Positions 47,413-55,370 of a DNA stretch of 64,000 bases are shown here, piece by piece; within the stretch, counting starts at the first letter, position 1; each line of letters opens with the position of its first letter. The stretch covers positions 826,708 through 890,707 of the forward strand of contig CAVSTX010000004.1 of assembly GCA_963730985.1 (NCBI GenBank). The letters run 5' to 3'. The DNA is from Pyrinomonadaceae bacterium. GTDB lineage: Bacteria > Acidobacteriota > Blastocatellia > Pyrinomonadales > Pyrinomonadaceae. The notes below the pieces were generated by a model. That model saw nothing but the letters and a program-made list of their open reading frames with translations. It had not been told where the DNA came from and did not search any database. Position numbers and translations under genes: made by a program.

Positions 47413-48168
47413 ATGATAATTGCCATCGCAAATCAAAAAGGTGGCGTAGGAAAGACGACTACTGCTATCAATTTGGCTGCCGCATTCGCCAGACTGGGCA
47501 AACGTGTCCTCCTCCTCGACTTAGATCCACAAGCCAACAGTTCGATTTCCTTTCTCGATCCACTTTCCGTCGAAAGATCGGCGTACGAGTTGATGACCGA
47601 TGGGCAGGCTCCGGTTGAACAGTCAGTTTATCGGACGCCGGTCGAAGGACTTGATCTGATTCCCGCGCGCATCAATCTGGCAAAACTTGAAGCAAAGCTG
47701 GTCGGCGACTTCGACGCCCCGTTCCGGCTCAAGGACCGTCTTTCACCATTTCGCGATCAGTATCCCGTAATCGTCATCGATACACCTCCGACGCTCGGAC
47801 TGATTACCGTGAACGCTTTGGTCGCGGCGTCCCACGTACTCGTTCCCATTCAATCGTCTTACTTTGCGCTTGAGGGAACTGACGACTTGCTTGAGACGAT
47901 AGAGAAGGTGAAAGCGCGGCCGAACCCACAGCTCGAGCTGCTAGGCGTGTTGGTCACATTGCACGACAAACGCACGACGCTGGCGAGAGAAGTTTACGAA
48001 CAGATCAAGAAAGTCTTTGGTCCGAAGTTGTTTGAGACGGTGATTACCAAGAGCGTTCGGCTGGAAGAGTCGCCCGCCTACAAGGAATCGATCTTTAGCT
48101 TCGCGCCTAATTCATCGGGTGCGATCGAATACGCAAATCTCTGCAATGAGGTATTAACACGTGTCTAA
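47413..48168 (+). CDS. parA: Chromosome partitioning ATPase ParA/Soj
   Basis: The deviant Walker A 'IANQKGGVGKTTTAINLA' is present. Confidence 0.9.
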   Translation: MIIAIANQKGGVGKTTTAINLAAAFARLGKRVLLLDLDPQANSSISFLDPLSVERSAYELMTDGQAPVEQSVYRTPVEGLDLIPARINLAKLEAKLVGDFDAPFRLKDRLSPFRDQYPVIVIDTPPTLGLITVNALVAASHVLVPIQSSYFALEGTDDLLETIEKVKARPNPQLELLGVLVTLHDKRTTLAREVYEQIKKVFGPKLFETVITKSVRLEESPAYKESIFSFAPNSSGAIEYANLCNEVLTRV

Positions 48169-49006
48169 ACGGGGACTACCAACCGGCCTCCAGATGCGCC
48201 ACGACGCGCATTACGTGGAAGAGCTTTCCCAGCATCAGCCCGCATCCGTCGGGCGCATGATCCCTCTGGACAAGATCGATCCAAATCCCGAGCAACCGCG
48301 CACTGAGTTTGGCGACTTGACGGAGTTGACTGCATCGATAGCTGAGAAGGGCGTGCTGGAGCCGTTGCTGGTAAAACCGTCGCGCCAGACCGGTCGCTGG
48401 ATGATCATAGCGGGAGAGCGGCGATTCAGAGCTGCCCGGGCTGCAGGTTTACGTGAGCTTCCGTGTGTAGAAATGGAAGTTGACGAGGGCACAGTTGCGG
48501 AGATTGCGCTGATCGAAAACATGCAGCGCAAAGATCTGACTGTCTGGGAAGAAGCTGACGGGTTATTGGCTTTGTGCGAGAAGTTTGGATACACGCACGA
48601 GGAAGTTGCTCGCAAGGTAGGAAAGAGCCGCAGCACCGTCACTGAGGCTCTGTCCATTGCCGCAATTCCCGACGACATTAGAACTCTTTGCCGTGAGGCC
48701 GACGTTAACGCCAAGTCGATGCTGCTACAGATCGTCCGTCAGCCGGACGAAGAGAGCATGAGACGACTAGCAAAACAGATAACCTCGAGAGGTTTAACGC
48801 GCGAAGACGCCAGGGAAGTAAGAAGACAGGAAATGGGACCGCGCGTGGCTGGTGAGAATAAACCTTACGTCTTCAAATACGCTTCGCCCACGAAAGAGTT
48901 TAGCCTGGAAGTAAAGTTTCGAAGGTCAGAAGTAACTACTCACGATGTTGCCCAGGCACTTCGATCAGTCGCCAAGAATATCGACGGCGGCGCCAACCAA
49001 ACTTGA
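48161..49006 (+). CDS. parB: Chromosome partitioning protein ParB/Spo0J
   Basis: Carries 'NPEQPR', 'IIAGERRFRAARAAGL' and an HTH 'THEEVARKVGKSRSTVTE'. Confidence 0.9.
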   Translation: MSKRGLPTGLQMRHDAHYVEELSQHQPASVGRMIPLDKIDPNPEQPRTEFGDLTELTASIAEKGVLEPLLVKPSRQTGRWMIIAGERRFRAARAAGLRELPCVEMEVDEGTVAEIALIENMQRKDLTVWEEADGLLALCEKFGYTHEEVARKVGKSRSTVTEALSIAAIPDDIRTLCREADVNAKSMLLQIVRQPDEESMRRLAKQITSRGLTREDAREVRRQEMGPRVAGENKPYVFKYASPTKEFSLEVKFRRSEVTTHDVAQALRSVAKNIDGGANQT

Positions 49007-50096: not shown

Positions 50097-50443
50097 TATT
50101 AGTACAGCCTCTTTAATTGAAGTTTGGTTTTAATGACAGCGTCCGTACTCTAGGTGATGGTTTTTCGAGCGTCAAGTTTGCCTAAAAACAGACCACATCC
50201 GCTCCTACAAAACCACCTACAGAACTCTCAACTGTCAGCAAAGGTTGATAGCGAGTCTACAAAAGTTGACACGACGAACCTGCGCGACTGAGCAAATTGT
50301 TAGTGTTTCAAATCACAGCCTGCGGGCATAGAGCTTGCATCGTCAAATTTAACTTCTCACGAAGAATATTCATGAACGTCGAACCCTCGATGCCAATCAA
50401 GGACTGACGCTCACATTCTTTTTCAGTTCACTTGAGGTGAGCC

Positions 50444-51562
50444 ATGCCAAATGAAGAAAGAACTATCCAGGCGATTAATGCTGCGATTAGGGAAGAGGGT
50501 TTACCATGGGCCGCTGGCCCAACTACGCTTTCTTCGCTACCGCCTGAAGAGCAAAGAAAATATCTTGGGTTAATTGTCGATGAAGCGGAAATGCAGCGAC
50601 TCGTGGCGGAAACGCGACAACTCGCCAGCTTGGAGCAGCCAATGCTCGGAGCCAGGGCTTTTGGTGCGCCCACGAAAGTCGATTGGCGGGATAACGGAGG
50701 TAATTACGTTACTCCCATCAAGAATCAGGGTGGGTGCGGCTCGTGCGTTTCGTTCTGTAGTTGCTCGGTAATCGAGTCAGCCGTCCGCATCAAACTTCAA
50801 AACCCCACCTACAACATCGATCTTTCAGAGGGATTCCTTCAGTTTTGCGGCGGTGGAAGCTGCGGTGGCTGGGGTCTGACCTCCGGCCTCGACTTTGCAA
50901 AGAGCACTGGTGTCGTCGACGAGGCTTGTATGCCGTACACGGCTGGCGGCGGCACCAACATGAATTGCACTGCCAGTCGTTGCAGTGATTGGCAAAACCG
51001 CGTGACCAAGATAGCGAGTTACACGAACCACTCGACCATGGAAGCGCGCAAAAACGCGATCGCTGCCGGACCAGTCCTCGCCGGAATGGAGGTATGGACC
51101 GACTTTTTCTCGTATTCCAGCGGTATTTACGTTAAGAGTGCTGCCGCAACTCGGTTGAGCCCGGATCCCGGATACCACTGCGTCTGCGTAGTCGGATACG
51201 ACGACTCTCAACAATGCTGGATTATTAAGAACAGCTGGGGAACCGGCTGGGGCGAGGCCGGTTTCATGCGAATGAAGTACGGCCAGACTGACCTACTTAT
51301 CGATAGCAGTTGGTCCTTTTCGTCCGTAGTCGTCGAGATTGCAGCGGCCTGGCACAGTAATGTCACTGTCTCGCAAGTTTTCGCGTCGCGGGATTCTCAG
51401 AATGGCTGGGCGCATTTCACAGGGCTCGGATGGCGCAAGATCCAGGCGGGCACCTCCGACGGCATTACCAACATGCTCGCACTTTTTGCGCAAGCTGTGG
51501 CGAAGAACAAGAAGGTGACCATCTACGCTGACGGGGACTTTGTATACCAGGCTTATCTCTAA
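50444..51562 (+). CDS. Papain-family (C1) cysteine peptidase, leaderless, with an extra C-terminal domain of about 70 aa
   Basis: Carries 'IKNQGGCGSCVSF' (catalytic Cys), 'GYHCVCVVGYDD' (His) and 'WIIKNSWGTGWGEAGF' (Asn-Ser-Trp). It has no hydrophobic N-terminal signal sequence. Confidence 0.85.
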   Translation: MPNEERTIQAINAAIREEGLPWAAGPTTLSSLPPEEQRKYLGLIVDEAEMQRLVAETRQLASLEQPMLGARAFGAPTKVDWRDNGGNYVTPIKNQGGCGSCVSFCSCSVIESAVRIKLQNPTYNIDLSEGFLQFCGGGSCGGWGLTSGLDFAKSTGVVDEACMPYTAGGGTNMNCTASRCSDWQNRVTKIASYTNHSTMEARKNAIAAGPVLAGMEVWTDFFSYSSGIYVKSAAATRLSPDPGYHCVCVVGYDDSQQCWIIKNSWGTGWGEAGFMRMKYGQTDLLIDSSWSFSSVVVEIAAAWHSNVTVSQVFASRDSQNGWAHFTGLGWRKIQAGTSDGITNMLALFAQAVAKNKKVTIYADGDFVYQAYL

Positions 51563-51584
51563 TACCTGGTCGATCGGAATCGTA

Positions 51585-51632
51585 GGATCGCGTCAGCCGG
51601 GAATTCACGAGAACGACGGGCTGACGTGATCC
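51585..51632 (+). promoter_or_regulatory. Intercistronic 14-bp stem-loop
   Basis: ggatcgcgtcagcc (51585-51598) pairs with ggctgacgtgatcc (51619-51632), with one G-U pair and a 20-nt loop. It lies between the protease gene and the small paralog gene. Confidence 0.5.
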
Positions 51633-51673
51633 GAACATACATGACAATTTCCAATTGAGGAGGTACTTTTACC

Positions 51674-51892
51674 GTGTGGACAAAAATCAATCAGGTATTC
51701 ACATCGCGTGATGGGCAAAACGGCTGGGCACACCTCGTGGGAACAAATGCCTGGCACAAGATCCTTCCGGGCTCTGCTGACGGCGTGACCAACGTGTTCA
51801 TGCTGCTAACTACTGCGAAGGGAAATGATCGGCAGGTTTACGTGGTGTTTGATGCTACAGCACAAAAGAACATTACCCAGTCCTACATGTAA
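51674..51892 (+). CDS. Small protein paralogous to the C-terminal domain of the adjacent C1 peptidase
   Basis: A 72-aa ORF with a GTG start and GAGGAGG 10 nt upstream. 'INQVFTSRDGQNGWAHLVG..W.KI.PGSADGVTNVF' aligns with 'VSQVFASRDSQNGWAHFTG..WRKIQAGTSDGITNML' in the protease. Confidence 0.75.
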   Translation: MWTKINQVFTSRDGQNGWAHLVGTNAWHKILPGSADGVTNVFMLLTTAKGNDRQVYVVFDATAQKNITQSYM

Positions 51893-51985
51893 TCAACCGC
51901 CTGCTTCAGGTGATGGACGAAGACCCATGATCCGCTTGTACCAGGACCAATCTGGAGGCACACCTGAACACAGAGGAGTATTGCC

Positions 51986-52420
51986 GTGAGTGATGTAAAT
52001 ATACATATTTCTGTCGGCTCAGGAGCTGATGCCGGCTCAGGCACTGGCTCGGGCGGCGCAGCGGTGCAGACTGTTGCCGGGACTGAACCCGCGCGCCCTA
52101 TGGCTCTTGCAGAGCTTCAATTCGGTGGTGGCGGCGAAAGCCCACCCAAGCCTTTGCTGCCTGAAGAACTAGCAACAGCGTCGGTCTCGTCCGGCGGAAG
52201 CTCAACACCTGCTCCTATGACAATCGAGCAGTTGCAGGGAAGCGTGGCTGCAGGTGCGCCGGAACCAGGAGCCTTTGGCTCGTTGGTGGAAACAGGCTCC
52301 GGTATGCCTACACCCTCGCTGGAACTGTTGGGCGAAGTTGCTGAAAGTGCGCCGCCAAGACCTATGTCGCCGGAAGAGCTGAGAGCACCAGGAACTTCCG
52401 GTAAGCCCTCCAAGAAATAG
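51986..52420 (+). CDS. Low-complexity Gly/Ser/Pro-rich protein with five copies of a P-x-P-[ML]-x-x-E-[EQ]-L motif
   Basis: A 144-aa ORF with a GTG start and a GAGGAG SD. The repeats are 'ARPMALAELQ', 'PKPLLPEELA', 'PAPMTIEQLQ', 'PTPSLELLG' and 'PRPMSPEELR'. Confidence 0.6.
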   Translation: MSDVNIHISVGSGADAGSGTGSGGAAVQTVAGTEPARPMALAELQFGGGGESPPKPLLPEELATASVSSGGSSTPAPMTIEQLQGSVAAGAPEPGAFGSLVETGSGMPTPSLELLGEVAESAPPRPMSPEELRAPGTSGKPSKK

Positions 52421-52437
52421 TCCCCACTGGTGAGCAA

Positions 52438-52794
52438 ATGGCCACTGTCGTATTGGACCAGGGGAACAATGGGGAAACAGTAAAACTCCGCCTCGGGGAT
52501 GACATCACGCTGCGGCTACCGGAAAACGCAACTACCGGGTACCGCTGGCACATAGAGCGCGCCGAAGGATTAATCGAGGAAGCTGCCACAGCTACTGAAC
52601 CTTCGGCGCCGTCGCCAGCGTCCACCTCTGATGATCAGAATCCCACCATTGGACGCGGGGGTCTACGCAAGTTTCACTTCCGCACCACAAAAGTCGGCCA
52701 AGGCCGCCTCGCGTTAAAGTACTACCGCGAATGGGAAGGCGGAGACTCGGCCCTCGAAAGCTTTGCAGTTGACCTGGACGTGGTTTCAGCTTAG
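52438..52794 (+). CDS. Chagasin-family (I42) cysteine peptidase inhibitor, leaderless
   Basis: The three chagasin/ICP loops occur in order: 'NATTGYRW' (NPTTG loop), 'IGRGGLRKFHF' (GxGG loop) and 'YYREWEG' (RPW loop). It is 118 aa with no signal peptide. Confidence 0.75.
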   Translation: MATVVLDQGNNGETVKLRLGDDITLRLPENATTGYRWHIERAEGLIEEAATATEPSAPSPASTSDDQNPTIGRGGLRKFHFRTTKVGQGRLALKYYREWEGGDSALESFAVDLDVVSA

Positions 52795-52930: not shown

Positions 52931-55370
52931 TCAGTCGGACCAGTACAGATACCAAATACCCCAATACTGCCGGCCGGATTTAAACAGCATCTCGCCGTCT
53001 CCGCTGACAGGGTTTCGCCTGAGCGGCGCAGTAAACTTCAATCGCACGTGACTGGGCCACAGTTTGTATTCCATATTGACATCGACTGCCGCCCGGTAGC
53101 CGCCGCTGGCGGAGTCCACCGGCTTTACGACATGGAGCACTGATGTGGGAGAAGGGCGCGGCGGCGGAAAGATGTCGAACTCGATCGCATTGTTTTCGCC
53201 ACCTGGATACCAACCGTTGACCCAGATAGCGACACGCGTAGCCGGCTTGCCGCCAAAAAGCGTCTCCTCCAGCTTGGTGAAAAGATTCGTCTCAGAAATT
53301 ACTGTCTTCGAACGTGCAAAACTAAAGATTGGATGCAACTCCGTTTTATAAGTCTTGTGACCGCAGTCAACAATCCAGCGGCCCGTCGTATGCACCAAAT
53401 CACCGACGGCCGGAGCACCTAGAAAATTGTGCGCATATGCCGCGTAAGCCATCTCATATTCGGTCTTAATCCGGTCCGTGTTCTCATGCCCGAACAGGCT
53501 GGGTAATTCAGGGCTCGTGACGATTTGCTGGCCAAGCGGACGTACGAAGAATTCGAAATCGGAAGCACACGTCAAGTTGATTCCGAGACGCCAGTTCAGG
53601 TACGGGCAGTTCGCATTATGGGTCCGGTGCGTGAGGGCATTGTCGATGCTCGCCATGTGTGCCCCAATTGTGTAGCCGAAAACTGGTGTCACATCGTGGT
53701 GACCGCGAACGGCTTTCCATTCTGGCGGACCCCAGGGACTTCCGGGAATATACGTTGTGCCGCTGCAGAACTGATTTTTGAAGTCCGGCTTGTTCTCGGG
53801 GGTAATTGGAGGAGGGAACTCGGGTTCCGGATCCACGGGACAGGGACCAAGGTTGTCATCGCATCTGAAACCCTCCCACAGGGTCGCCGGGTGCTTGTGC
53901 CGTTCCTGATCAAAAGCGCTCAGCTCAAATACCCACTCGCCCAAGCCAGGTCCTATAAGCCACTTTCCAATTTGGCGCTCCATCCACAGCTTCGGTGGGG
54001 TACCTCGAATCTCTAACGTTGAGGGCAAGATCCACTCCTCGTCACCCGGGCGGTCAAACCGCTGGAACAGCCACGTCTGCATAGGTCCGGCGGAATTGGT
54101 GGGATCGCCGAGCGGCAACCCAACCTTCTCATCGCCGCCTCGTTTATCGATCGCCTCCGCAAAGACAGCTGGAACGTATACCGCCTCGGGTGGTGCTATC
54201 GTCGGCAACCTGGCATAGATGCGCCCGCGTTCGAATGGCTGAGAGCGAGCTCCACCGATTATTGTGTCTCTCTCCTCGCCTGTGGGACATCCAAACCATC
54301 CTCTCTCGTTGAAGTTACCGCGCAGCGACATCCACTTGGTGAAGATATCGCCGCGGACGGCGATCGCGCCGCCGTCACGGCCACTGATTGCTCCGCGTTC
54401 ATACACCGCAATTGAGCAACCTCGTAGCAGACCGTATTGAAATTCTCCAAGTGCGGGCGTGCCTCCTTCGGTATTGAAACGATCGCGAACCGCGCGTGGC
54501 AGGTTAGTCAAATTGCTCGTAGCCGTGCCTTTGAGCCCGGCGATGTTTTCGGCAACAGCGGTGACCGTAACTGGACCAAGGGGCAGGGGAGTGATTCCTC
54601 CTTCGAGTGAGAATTGGCGCGTCGGTCCGCTCCCAGTCAAGCTAAGCCATAGTTTAAGCGGCGGTGCAGTAGACTCGGGCGGGAGACGATATCCAACGGT
54701 AACAATAACGTTCGAACGCAACCCTTCACCGGTCACCGTGCCTGCAATCTCCATCCTCGGAAGGTCGCCTGGAATATCCACCTCGGTGTTGTTGATCGGT
54801 TGAGTTAGCTGAACAACCGGCGGTGTCGTCGGCAGTGGAGGAGGTGAGTCTCCGTCGAATTCAAGGTCGTCAATCGAAACGTATGGCGTGCCGTCGAGCT
54901 GCAATTCGACCCGGCGGATGTCCGGCGCCGCGACTTCAAACGCCGTAGTGAACTTGTTCGGCACAACAGGGTGCCCGGCGACCGCCACCACATTACCGAG
55001 TGGAGTCGAACGCAGTCAGCTTCCCGTTGATGTTAGAAAAGGAACCCGCAAAAAGTTTTACGCGAGTCACCGTCATCTCGTTGCGAAACCGAATGACAAA
55101 CGGGAAAACTGTGAAAACCTCCTCTCCTGGCCGGACCGCTCTCACTACTCGCTGACCTGAACGCGCCGCCGGATCGACGTCGAGATAGCCGATATCAAAA
55201 AGCACTCCGAGGTCGCTGTATTGAATGCCCATCGTGGAGCCAGTTGGAATCGCAGCGCGCTCGAAATCCACAACTGTCGTCTGGGCGTTAACGCTTAGGG
55301 TGGACGAAAGGAAGGCGATGCTTAATGCGATGAGCGGCATCGCAGCACGCGCAACCGATCTTGTGTACAT
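52931..55370 (-). pseudogene. Large secreted LGFP-repeat protein whose signal-peptide exon-like piece lies in another frame
   Basis: ORF 54993..55370 carries a signal peptide ('MPLIALSIAFLSSTLSVNA') and abuts ORF 52931..54991. The second frame is open from 55015. Deleting 1 nt within 54996-55015 joins the two ORFs. The central region has LGFP-like repeats ('LGEFQYG..G..I.V.G.I..KW','VGLPLGDPT'). The roughly 350-aa C-terminal part is unassigned. Confidence 0.6.

Follow-up and report, generated by a model that had tools for sequence, protein, structure and literature searches.

A four-gene operon in a Pyrinomonadaceae bacterium (Acidobacteriota) is the papain version of a modular protease cassette. 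It lies at positions 50444-52794 on the forward strand of the analysed stretch, a 64,000-nucleotide piece of contig CAVSTX010000004.1 (assembly GCA_963730985.1, positions 826,708 to 890,707), which is called the window throughout. The genes share one strand and are named here G1 to G4. G1 encodes a leaderless papain-family (C1) protease with an additional C-terminal domain of about 70 amino acids (aa), termed Cdom. G2 encodes a free Cdom, G3 a disordered protein with repeated short motifs, and G4 a protein of the chagasin inhibitor family (I42). The fused Cdom, the free Cdom and the G3 protein form a constant trio, which is combined with an exchangeable pair of protease and fourth gene. An initial annotation of this DNA had read the operon as a self-contained, inhibitor-gated module with two small partners. 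That reading gained support, since the two family assignments, the lack of secretion signals and the co-occurrence of the four genes all held up. The emphasis nevertheless shifts from a protease plus its inhibitor to a constant assembly trio with an exchangeable protease/inhibitor pair.

A constant trio combined with six protease families

The wider cassette was retrieved with a back-translated DNA pattern of the core GWRKI...DGVTN, which returned at least 120 metagenome stretches. An in-house hidden Markov model (HMM) scan of 121 metagenome loci revealed that in nearly all of them the fused Cdom is directly followed by one free copy, sometimes two. A G3-like open reading frame (ORF) comes next wherever the contig continues past the free Cdom. 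Order, orientation and spacing were found to be conserved in more than 130 loci, and clustering of the flanking ORFs of these loci revealed no recurrent neighbour beyond the cassette genes.

The class of the protease was assigned by clustering the N-terminal parts of 98 fused proteins. The most frequent class is M6 (38 loci), followed by astacin M12A (20 loci), C1 (14), S8 (7), matrixin M10 (5) and protealysin-like M4 (4), and the M4 and M10 versions carry PLN_propep and PG_binding_1 pro-regions. The fourth gene was found to change with the class of the protease. All 14 C1 loci have an I42 gene, and 13 of 14 astacin loci have a YscW-like gene (PF09619, E-value 1.9e-5). In M6 loci (12/12) the fourth gene encodes an unnamed protein of about 100 aa with the signature 'AEYIGG..G.FQL' and no Pfam match. 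Within one locus the fused and the free Cdom are 53% identical, whereas identity across protease classes is 39-42%, which argues that the two copies evolve together.

Moreover, a Cdom profile run against 1.84 billion representative proteins matched 300 clusters at E <= 1e-3. Almost all of them are free 70-76-aa proteins starting 'MW..N' or the C-termini of larger proteins, and Pfam places these larger ones in various protease families. P0194 was rejected as a Cdom protein, being a HAMP-repeat chemoreceptor with a spurious match. P0159 (439 aa) is a C1 protease with two tandem C-terminal Cdom copies, a natural covalent Cdom-Cdom pair.

Individual loci illustrate the exchange of the payload. In L087 (675-4695, Logan SRR28483847), an M6-Cdom protein (531 aa) and an astacin-Cdom protein (332 aa) are encoded together, with one free Cdom and one G3-like protein shared by both payloads. 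The YscW-like (117 aa) and 'AEYIGG' (96 aa) genes of this locus lie together just downstream on the opposite strand. L088 contains an astacin-Cdom protein and L090 an S8-Cdom protein, each with a free Cdom and a G3-like protein. L089 (34-6010, Logan SRR27977661) combines a matrixin-Cdom protein with a free Cdom and a mini-G3 of 59 aa. Neighbouring genes of L089 encode Mtd_N-like N-termini ('MALIKLRRGLKANAP...'), typical of phage tail fibres, and this was the only phage or tailocin hint. Four loci of the M6 class (L147, L169, L181 and L205) encode, after the fused copy, two free Cdom proteins in a row (76 and 77 aa), which suggests that more than one kind of free Cdom subunit can be needed in some M6 cassettes.

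The four genes of the papain-type operon

The sequence of G1 is that of a complete C1A enzyme that lacks an export signal and has an extra C-terminal domain; the enzyme is predicted to be an endopeptidase. It matches Pfam PF00112 (Peptidase_C1) over aa 76-283 (E 2.8e-41; 142.4 bits, cut-off 20.7). All 171 of its relatives in the PDB belong to the papain family, the best being dipeptidyl peptidase 1 (E 3.5e-32). Residues Gln95, Cys101, His245, Asn263 and Trp265 are invariant or nearly so across 22 family members; together with the Pfam match this bears out the papain catalytic signature that the initial annotation had read in order. A further search gave 910 homologues at E <= 1e-5, and the best 120 of these show 60-90% identity, are mostly about 365-375 aa long and align over essentially their full length.

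Alignment with the N-termini of mature cathepsins places the beginning of the mature papain-type domain of G1 near aa 75, and aa 1-74 therefore occupy the exact position of a propeptide. The same region is conserved in secreted relatives, in which it is placed after the signal peptide. It had been claimed that G1 has neither a signal peptide nor an I29 propeptide, two features that are common in the C1 family though some members lack them. This stands insofar as no signal and no match to the Pfam I29 propeptide were found in G1; the N-terminal region is, however, not featureless, because it fills the propeptide position. G1 contains 12 cysteines, 11 of which are invariant in 22 homologues. Among them, C98/C140 and C135/C162 align with the disulfide pairs of the papain family and presumably are disulfide cysteines here too, as established for that family. 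Six further invariant cysteines were noted (C105, C107, C175, C180, C246, which lies beside the catalytic His, and C258), and these could provide an additional disulfide, a metal site or a redox switch.

Sec, Tat, lipobox and transmembrane signals were looked for in G1 to G4 with a Kyte-Doolittle scan and a twin-arginine and lipobox check, and none were found. The ORFs were defined to open at the earliest start codon that follows a stop, and all four are thus already at their maximal 5' extent. Therefore no longer ORF is possible, and no hidden signal peptide lies upstream of any of the four genes.

G4 matches Pfam PF09394 (Inhibitor_I42) over profile positions 2-89 of 91 (E 2.6e-18; 66.5 bits, cut-off 27.2), so that the C1 and I42 assignments both hold in profile HMM searches. 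The contact loops stand in the order NATTGYRW, GRGG and REW, and the orthologues keep them as NPTTG[YF]RW, G[SR]GG and [QE][AE]W. With a clean hydropathy scan, this confirms the three I42 loops and the missing signal peptide that had been reported for G4.

The relation between I42 genes and leaderless proteases was analysed in the 80 best C1 loci (83 C1 homologues), in which the N-terminal hydrophobic segment was scored and an I42 gene was sought at a distance of up to 1.5 kb. The 16 non-redundant C1 genes that have an I42 neighbour were all leaderless, against 6 of the 67 without one (the other 61 being signal-bearing); the Fisher p-value of 1.4e-12 is overstated, given the kinship of the sequences and the crude hydropathy criterion. 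The I42-linked set includes two-gene C1/I42 pairs without Cdom (L013, L017, L038 and Xanthobacter autotrophicus, L039). The strict company of I42 neighbours and leaderless C1 enzymes is the strongest evidence obtained here that G4 is cognate to an enzyme of its own compartment. It strongly suggests that G4 is the active-site inhibitor of G1 and would protect the producer, in line with the earlier description of a cognate-looking inhibitor. The evidence for inhibition is genetic, consisting of the I42 gene beside C1 cassettes (14/14) and beside leaderless C1 homologues (16/16).

Characterised bacterial chagasins, of which Cpi1 is an example, are exported or membrane-anchored, are directed at host proteases and occur in species without C1 enzymes (10.64898/2026.06.02.729523, a 2026 preprint). 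The premise of the initial annotation, that bacterial chagasins mostly act outside the cell on foreign proteases, agrees with this literature. An older review stated that bacterial chagasins 'may' inhibit their own or host proteases (PMC2784779). Like the chagasin of Trypanosoma cruzi, G4 appears to regulate an endogenous papain-type enzyme. Unlike the Pseudomonas chagasins Cip1, Cpi1 and ICP, which are exported or anchored and have host targets, it has no leader and is tied genetically to a C1 gene.

G2 is 45% identical to aa 309-363 of G1 (E 2e-15) and is therefore a free paralogue of the G1 tail by sequence, as the initial annotation had recognised. Neither G2 nor G3 has a match in Pfam, and none of the four proteins has a match in NCBIfam or PADLOC. 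The closest homologue of G2 (97%) comes from a Pyrinomonadaceae metagenome-assembled genome (MAG). In a collection of 5.8 billion proteins the homologues of G2 are labelled 'hypothetical', save for a few JGI labels, and none has a Pfam domain. Several JGI records name 70-aa homologues 'uncharacterized protein YbjT (DUF2867 family)' or 'immune inhibitor A'. These labels look like annotation errors, as the protein contains no such domain, and the second probably derives from M6-Cdom fusion proteins.

An AlphaFold2 (AF2) model of G2/Cdom, built from 47 sequences, reached a confidence (pLDDT) of 96.6 and shows the topology b1-b2-b3-helix-b4-b5, an oligonucleotide/oligosaccharide-binding (OB) fold. 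In a Foldseek comparison with the PDB, the best match was CipA, a crystalline inclusion protein of Photorhabdus (7xhs; TMq 0.78, probability 1.00). It was followed by toxin B subunits, namely those of heat-labile enterotoxin (LT-B) and a cholera-toxin-like toxin (TMq 0.66-0.70, probability 0.96-0.99), whereas nucleic-acid-binding OB folds reached a TMq of only 0.36-0.44. A viral structure library gave no convincing match, the sole match with a TMq of 0.70 being a protein of a toxin-carrying phage of an aphid symbiont. A ubiquitin-like or RiPP-recognition fold (RiPP, ribosomally synthesized and post-translationally modified peptide) was rejected by the topology of the model. A role of Cdom as a direct protease inhibitor, analogous to the OB fold of tissue inhibitors of metalloproteinases (TIMP), or as an intramolecular chaperone was also rejected, since the same domain accompanies six unrelated catalytic folds.

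In every cassette the free Cdom and the fourth gene are separated by an ORF of about 100-170 aa. G3 itself consists of an alternating N-terminal strand (DVNIHISV), about six motifs of the type PxP[ML]xx[ED][EQ]L and a basic tail (GKPSKK). The G3-like proteins share an alternating hydrophobic N-terminal strand (DVNIHISV, DVTIHISL, KIEISV, EITINVNL), a body rich in Ala, Gly, Ser, Pro and acidic residues and usually a Lys/Arg-rich tail. The motif [AG][AP]-P-x-P-[ML]-x-[LPIF]-[EDG]-[QE]-L was found 59 times in twelve orthologues from C1 cassettes, compared with 4.6 +/- 2.1 times in shuffled sequences. This is about 13-fold over chance, with 4-7 evenly spaced copies per protein, and successive copies keep their individual character across species. 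In M6 and astacin cassettes the motifs drift to PPPP or acidic forms. G3 is a genuine gene whose short motifs are conserved, and its earlier description as a motif-repeat protein was correct.

The same four-gene order and orientation was found in at least 11 independent genomes with unrelated flanks. These belong to five phyla, with carriers in Acidobacteriota, Gemmatimonadota, Chloroflexota, Actinomycetota and Alphaproteobacteria, and the adjacency is thus not fortuitous. Three homologues of G1 that were looked up stand in the same order of genes (C1 of 367 aa, then genes of 70 aa and 131-138 aa, and I42) within entirely different flanks; the sources of these look-ups were a 3-Mb contig of Actinomycetota, two other Actinomycetota MAGs and two Rhodospirillales MAGs. 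A species-level scan covered one genome for each of 185,579 species, and about 9 of the 80 best loci examined carry the full C1 cassette. The scan added a Blastocatellia MAG (L007, 92% identical), Gemmatimonadales, Thermomicrobiales, an alphaproteobacterial MAG and Chloroflexia, together with two isolates, Oryzobacter sp. R7 and Mesorhizobium microcysteis MaA-C15.

Some of these loci show further features. The Thermomicrobiales locus (L009, 8667-9860) has another C1-Cdom paralogue (397 aa), a divergent one, which lies 1.2 kb downstream of the I42 gene. An Actinomycetota locus (L003, 10146-11072) contains a second C1 gene (308 aa, no Cdom) with a PG_binding_1 protein before it. In two long-read MAGs of the MFD series the I42 gene is split by a frameshift (L007, 7897-8341; L014, 5905-8183), and in L014 the C1 gene is split as well. 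As the rest of each cassette is intact, these frameshifts are probably assembly errors rather than pseudogenes.

The features of the operon are set out in Table 1. The gaps between G1 and G2, G2 and G3, and G3 and G4 measure 111, 93 and 17 nt, and each gene has its own Shine-Dalgarno sequence. The four same-strand ORFs, their spacing of 17-111 nt and the Shine-Dalgarno sequences at 51657-51663 and before the GTG at 51986 were all found as first described. The spacer between G1 and G2 contains a hairpin with the stem arms GGAUCGCGUCAGCC...GGCUGACGUGAUCC, and for the 126 nt around it a folding energy of -43.3 kcal/mol (z = -2.3) was calculated. In the Blastocatellia locus L007 (92% identical) the loop differs but the stem persists. 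Because the hairpin has no U-tract, it is less likely to be a terminator and more likely to be a processing or stability element that would separate the expression of G1 and G2. A promoter and terminator consensus scan of the locus gave no score above shuffled sequence.

Table 1. Positions of the operon features in the window
Feature	Position	Strand	Basis and remarks
Shine-Dalgarno-like GAGGTG	50433..50438	+	Read from sequence; 5 nt 5' of G1 ATG
G1, protease-Cdom, 372 aa, ATG	50444..51562	+	ORF list
G1 aa 1-74, leaderless N-terminal region, propeptide position, predicted helical	50444..50665	+	Alignment to relatives
G1 aa 75-300, C1A catalytic domain (Gln95, Cys101, His245, Asn263, Trp265)	50666..51343	+	Pfam PF00112
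G1 aa 301-372, predicted OB-fold Cdom, fused copy, with stop codon	51344..51562	+	Alignment to G2
Hairpin between G1 and G2, 14-bp stem	51585..51632	+	RNA fold
Strong Shine-Dalgarno GAGGAGG	51657..51663	+	Read from sequence; 10 nt 5' of G2 GTG; identical in L007
G2, free Cdom, 72 aa, GTG	51674..51892	+	Paralogue of G1 tail
Shine-Dalgarno GAGGAG	51973..51978	+	Read from sequence; 7 nt 5' of G3 GTG
G3, disordered acidic protein, 144 aa, GTG	51986..52420	+	Orthologues at same position in every cassette
G4, chagasin-family (I42) inhibitor, 118 aa, ATG, leaderless	52438..52794	+	Pfam PF09394

Genes for ParA (251 aa) and ParB (281 aa), which overlap by 8 nt, lie about 1.4 kb upstream of the cassette (47413-49006, +), and the Blastocatellia MAG has the same parA upstream of its cassette (L007, 3413-4168). 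On the other side, a convergent 686-aa ORF (52931-54991, -) contains an LGFP repeat (Pfam E 1.5e-8); the 125-aa ORF that comes after it (54993-55370, -) has a clearly signal-like segment at its N-terminus. Neither of these two ORFs is conserved beside the cassette in other genomes. A divergent 178-aa ORF upstream was rejected as a fifth conserved gene, as it is unrelated to the upstream ORF in L001. No anomaly in guanine-cytosine (GC) content, tRNA or integrase was found at the window locus. A tblastn search with G2 gave no match among 72,556 plasmids (PLSDB) and 50,697 phages (INPHARED), and the Cdom DNA pattern gave none among the viral contigs of IMG/VR.

Proposed mechanism and competing explanations

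The most likely role of the cassette would be that of a stored protease particle acting outside the producer. G1 would be made in the cytoplasm and kept under control there. Judged from the strict co-occurrence of the two genes, G4 would block the active site of G1 in the producer cell as an immunity-type partner. Cdom would be a ring-forming oligomerization module, comparable to the B subunits of AB5 toxins or to CipA. CipA has an OB fold with an N-terminal arm and forms a ring tetramer in which the helices are bundled round the fourfold axis and neighbours pair through their b1/b5 edges; it closely resembles the LT-IIb B pentamer, and its N-terminal arm cements the lattice (PMC9530169). One protease-Cdom chain and several G2 chains would thus make an 'A-B fusion plus free B' particle; a surplus of free chains would agree with the stronger ribosome-binding site of G2. 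The modelled fold, the obligate pairing of a fused with a free gene copy and the co-evolution of the two copies lend moderate support to Cdom being such a module, in which one fused and several free copies form a hetero-oligomer.

More speculatively, G3 could be a multivalent tether whose N-terminal strand and repeated PxP[ML]xxEEL motifs bind Cdom, which is proposed as its partner because Cdom is the only one constant across protease classes. The N-terminal strand could act in trans as the N-terminal arm of CipA does, and the basic tail may bind an anionic surface. The inhibitor-locked particle would be stored, and its payload would act outside the producer cytoplasm on foreign proteins or cells, either after lysis or via a hypothetical export route. 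Action outside the cytoplasm is favoured because all six payload families are broad-specificity, zymogen-type exoproteases and because G1 invariantly keeps the papain-type disulfide cysteines. It is also favoured because the nearest folds of Cdom are a toxin cell-binding subunit and a cytoplasmic inclusion protein, and the cassette has no sensor domain.

Several points weigh against this mechanism, besides the overstated p-value mentioned above. The Foldseek E-values of the Cdom matches are weak (about 0.09; about 0.09-0.36 for the AB5 B subunits). The Cdom profile found no relative among the PDB sequences at E <= 10, 7xhs being absent and the four weak matches unrelated, so that ring formation by Cdom is deduced from its fold class alone. 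The AF2 model of full-length G1 (pLDDT 54) is unusable, and the Shine-Dalgarno argument for an excess of G2 comes from the window and L007 only. No exporter, holin or lysis gene was found in or near the cassettes of the more than 130 loci, which makes the exit route hypothetical. The YscW-like and 'AEYIGG' proteins are assumed to be inhibitors; the YscW match has an E-value of only 1.9e-5 and the other protein has no match. Finally, the contacts between G1 and G4, between Cdom copies and between G3 and Cdom are putative, drawn from genes and models. Taken as a whole, the reading of an inhibitor-locked protease, a Cdom hetero-oligomer, a G3 tether and a stored particle is given an even chance of being right. 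A broader proposal is possible, although somewhat improbable. It holds that the trio would be a phylum-spanning platform for assembly or delivery that makes a covalent 'A-B plus free B' particle, comparable to AB5 toxins or Cip inclusions, for at least six interchangeable payload families (C1, M6, M12A, M10, S8 and M4). Each of these would have a class-specific cytoplasmic inhibitor, and at least two of the inhibitors (YscW-like and 'AEYIGG') would be new metalloprotease inhibitors.

By the absence of signals, all components of the operon would be cytoplasmic. The effector class is swapped while the accessories stay constant, a hallmark of conflict systems, and the patchy distribution over at least five phyla with unrelated flanks suggests horizontal transfer. 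These features would also suit an intracellular conflict module, toxin/antitoxin-like or acting by abortive infection, with the protease as suicide effector, the chagasin as antitoxin and Cdom/G3 as sensor or trigger. A phage protein or nucleic acid bound on the OB fold would free the protease, and the infected cell would be killed or arrested. OB folds are often nucleic-acid binders, the matrixin cassette of L089 lies among tail-fibre-like genes, and the authors of the protealysin study discuss an effector/immunity reading of a leaderless protease/inhibitor operon (PMC9505478). Conversely, none of the four proteins matches PADLOC, and the plasmid, phage and IMG/VR searches were negative. The locus lacks a GC anomaly, tRNA or integrase, and the cassette lacks an NTPase (nucleoside triphosphatase), a nuclease or a recognisable sensor domain. 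Nucleic-acid OB folds also match Cdom much worse than toxin B subunits and CipA do. Moreover, chagasins are stable, tight binders and not labile antitoxins. A conflict module is therefore considered unlikely, though it keeps some weight.

The role of G3 could also be that of a substrate. Its 4-7 evenly spaced conserved motifs might belong to a multi-copy precursor that is cut at the motifs into short signal or bioactive peptides, with G2/Cdom as the recognition element, and the Met/Leu position would suit the S2 pocket of a papain-type enzyme. Recognition domains that are both fused and free are known in peptide maturation, namely the RiPP recognition elements (RRE). However, G3-like proteins with related PxP motifs accompany six unrelated protease families of different specificity, and motif drift is seen in cassettes of the M6 and astacin classes. 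Neither an exporter nor a modifying enzyme is encoded in the cassettes, and the fold of Cdom is not the winged-helix fold of the RRE. A precursor function is thus very improbable. An ordinary housekeeping protease with a regulatory inhibitor, serving turnover or starvation recycling and accompanied by small genes that are mere accessories or chaperones, would agree with the leaderless, chromosomal genes, with the location near parAB in the window and in its closest relative and with the native base composition. It is an improbable explanation all the same, given how rare the system is (the full C1 cassette in about 9 of the 80 best loci of the species scan; 300 Cdom clusters in 1.84e9 proteins), its patchy spread across phyla and its payload families of exoprotease type. 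The strict conservation of G2 and G3 further argues that both are essential to the system. The low complexity of G3 and the GTG starts of G2 and G3 might point to a fortuitous adjacency or to small ORFs that are not genes. This was excluded for practical purposes by the synteny in more than 130 loci, the confident fold of G2 and the motif excess in G3.

Likeness to known systems and significance

Operons in which a protease is encoded with a specific inhibitor that shields the producer have been described before. The intracellular M4 protease protealysin shares an operon with its inhibitor emfourin (PMC9505478). The KLIKK peptidases of Tannerella forsythia comprise five families with a shared C-terminal domain, co-transcribed with specific potempin inhibitors, and staphostatin, Spi and serralysin-inhibitor pairs are cited as further examples (PMC9890683). 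Like protealysin-emfourin, staphopain-staphostatin and KLIKK-potempin, the cassette has a class-specific partner gene beside the protease on the same strand. As in the KLIKK system, several catalytic families have one common C-terminal domain and an adjacent dedicated partner; unlike in KLIKK, the common domain has a predicted OB fold and is not a type IX secretion (T9SS) sorting domain. The operon further differs from the protealysin, staphopain and KLIKK systems in its I42 inhibitor, in the absence of signal peptides and in its two extra conserved genes, the free Cdom and G3.

The arrangement also resembles that of AB5 toxins, especially SubAB, in which a subtilase serves as the A subunit (PMC2213318). 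Both join an enzymatic part, which in SubAB is a protease, to a small subunit of OB fold (a predicted fold for Cdom), and the B-type gene lies directly downstream. AB5 toxins have separate A and B chains, each with a Sec signal, that come together after export. In the cassette, by contrast, the protease is fused to one Cdom, Sec signals and sequence homology are lacking, and a disordered protein and an inhibitor are added. Moreover, the hosts are soil bacteria of many phyla. CipA, the best structural match of Cdom, is likewise a small cytoplasmic OB-fold protein; Cdom has no sequence similarity to it, and CipA is not linked to proteases or inhibitors.

The C1 and I42 families and the principle of a co-transcribed inhibitor were already known. 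In the databases and literature searched, the endogenous pairing of a leaderless C1 enzyme with I42 in bacteria is undescribed, the Cdom family is unnamed, and the service of one Cdom/free Cdom/G3 trio to six protease families with class-matched partners is likewise undescribed. The cultured carriers Mesorhizobium microcysteis MaA-C15 and Oryzobacter sp. R7 allow direct testing; Granulicoccus phenolivorans is also cultured and is known here by its G2 homologue alone.

For the chagasin field, the genetic linkage of I42 to an endogenous papain-type enzyme without a leader, seen in several phyla, offers a testable answer to the question of the original role of I42 in bacteria. For protease biology, the cassettes show a single unchanging set of three accessory parts that has been joined to six unrelated protease families and to the partners that match them. 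If the proposed assembly is true, its YscW-like and 'AEYIGG' partners would be two candidate new families of metalloprotease inhibitors, and Cdom could supply a small self-assembling tag for enzyme scaffolding, a use that Cip proteins already serve. The cassette would then represent a new bacterial way of packing dangerous enzymes and keeping them in check in the absence of a secretion signal.

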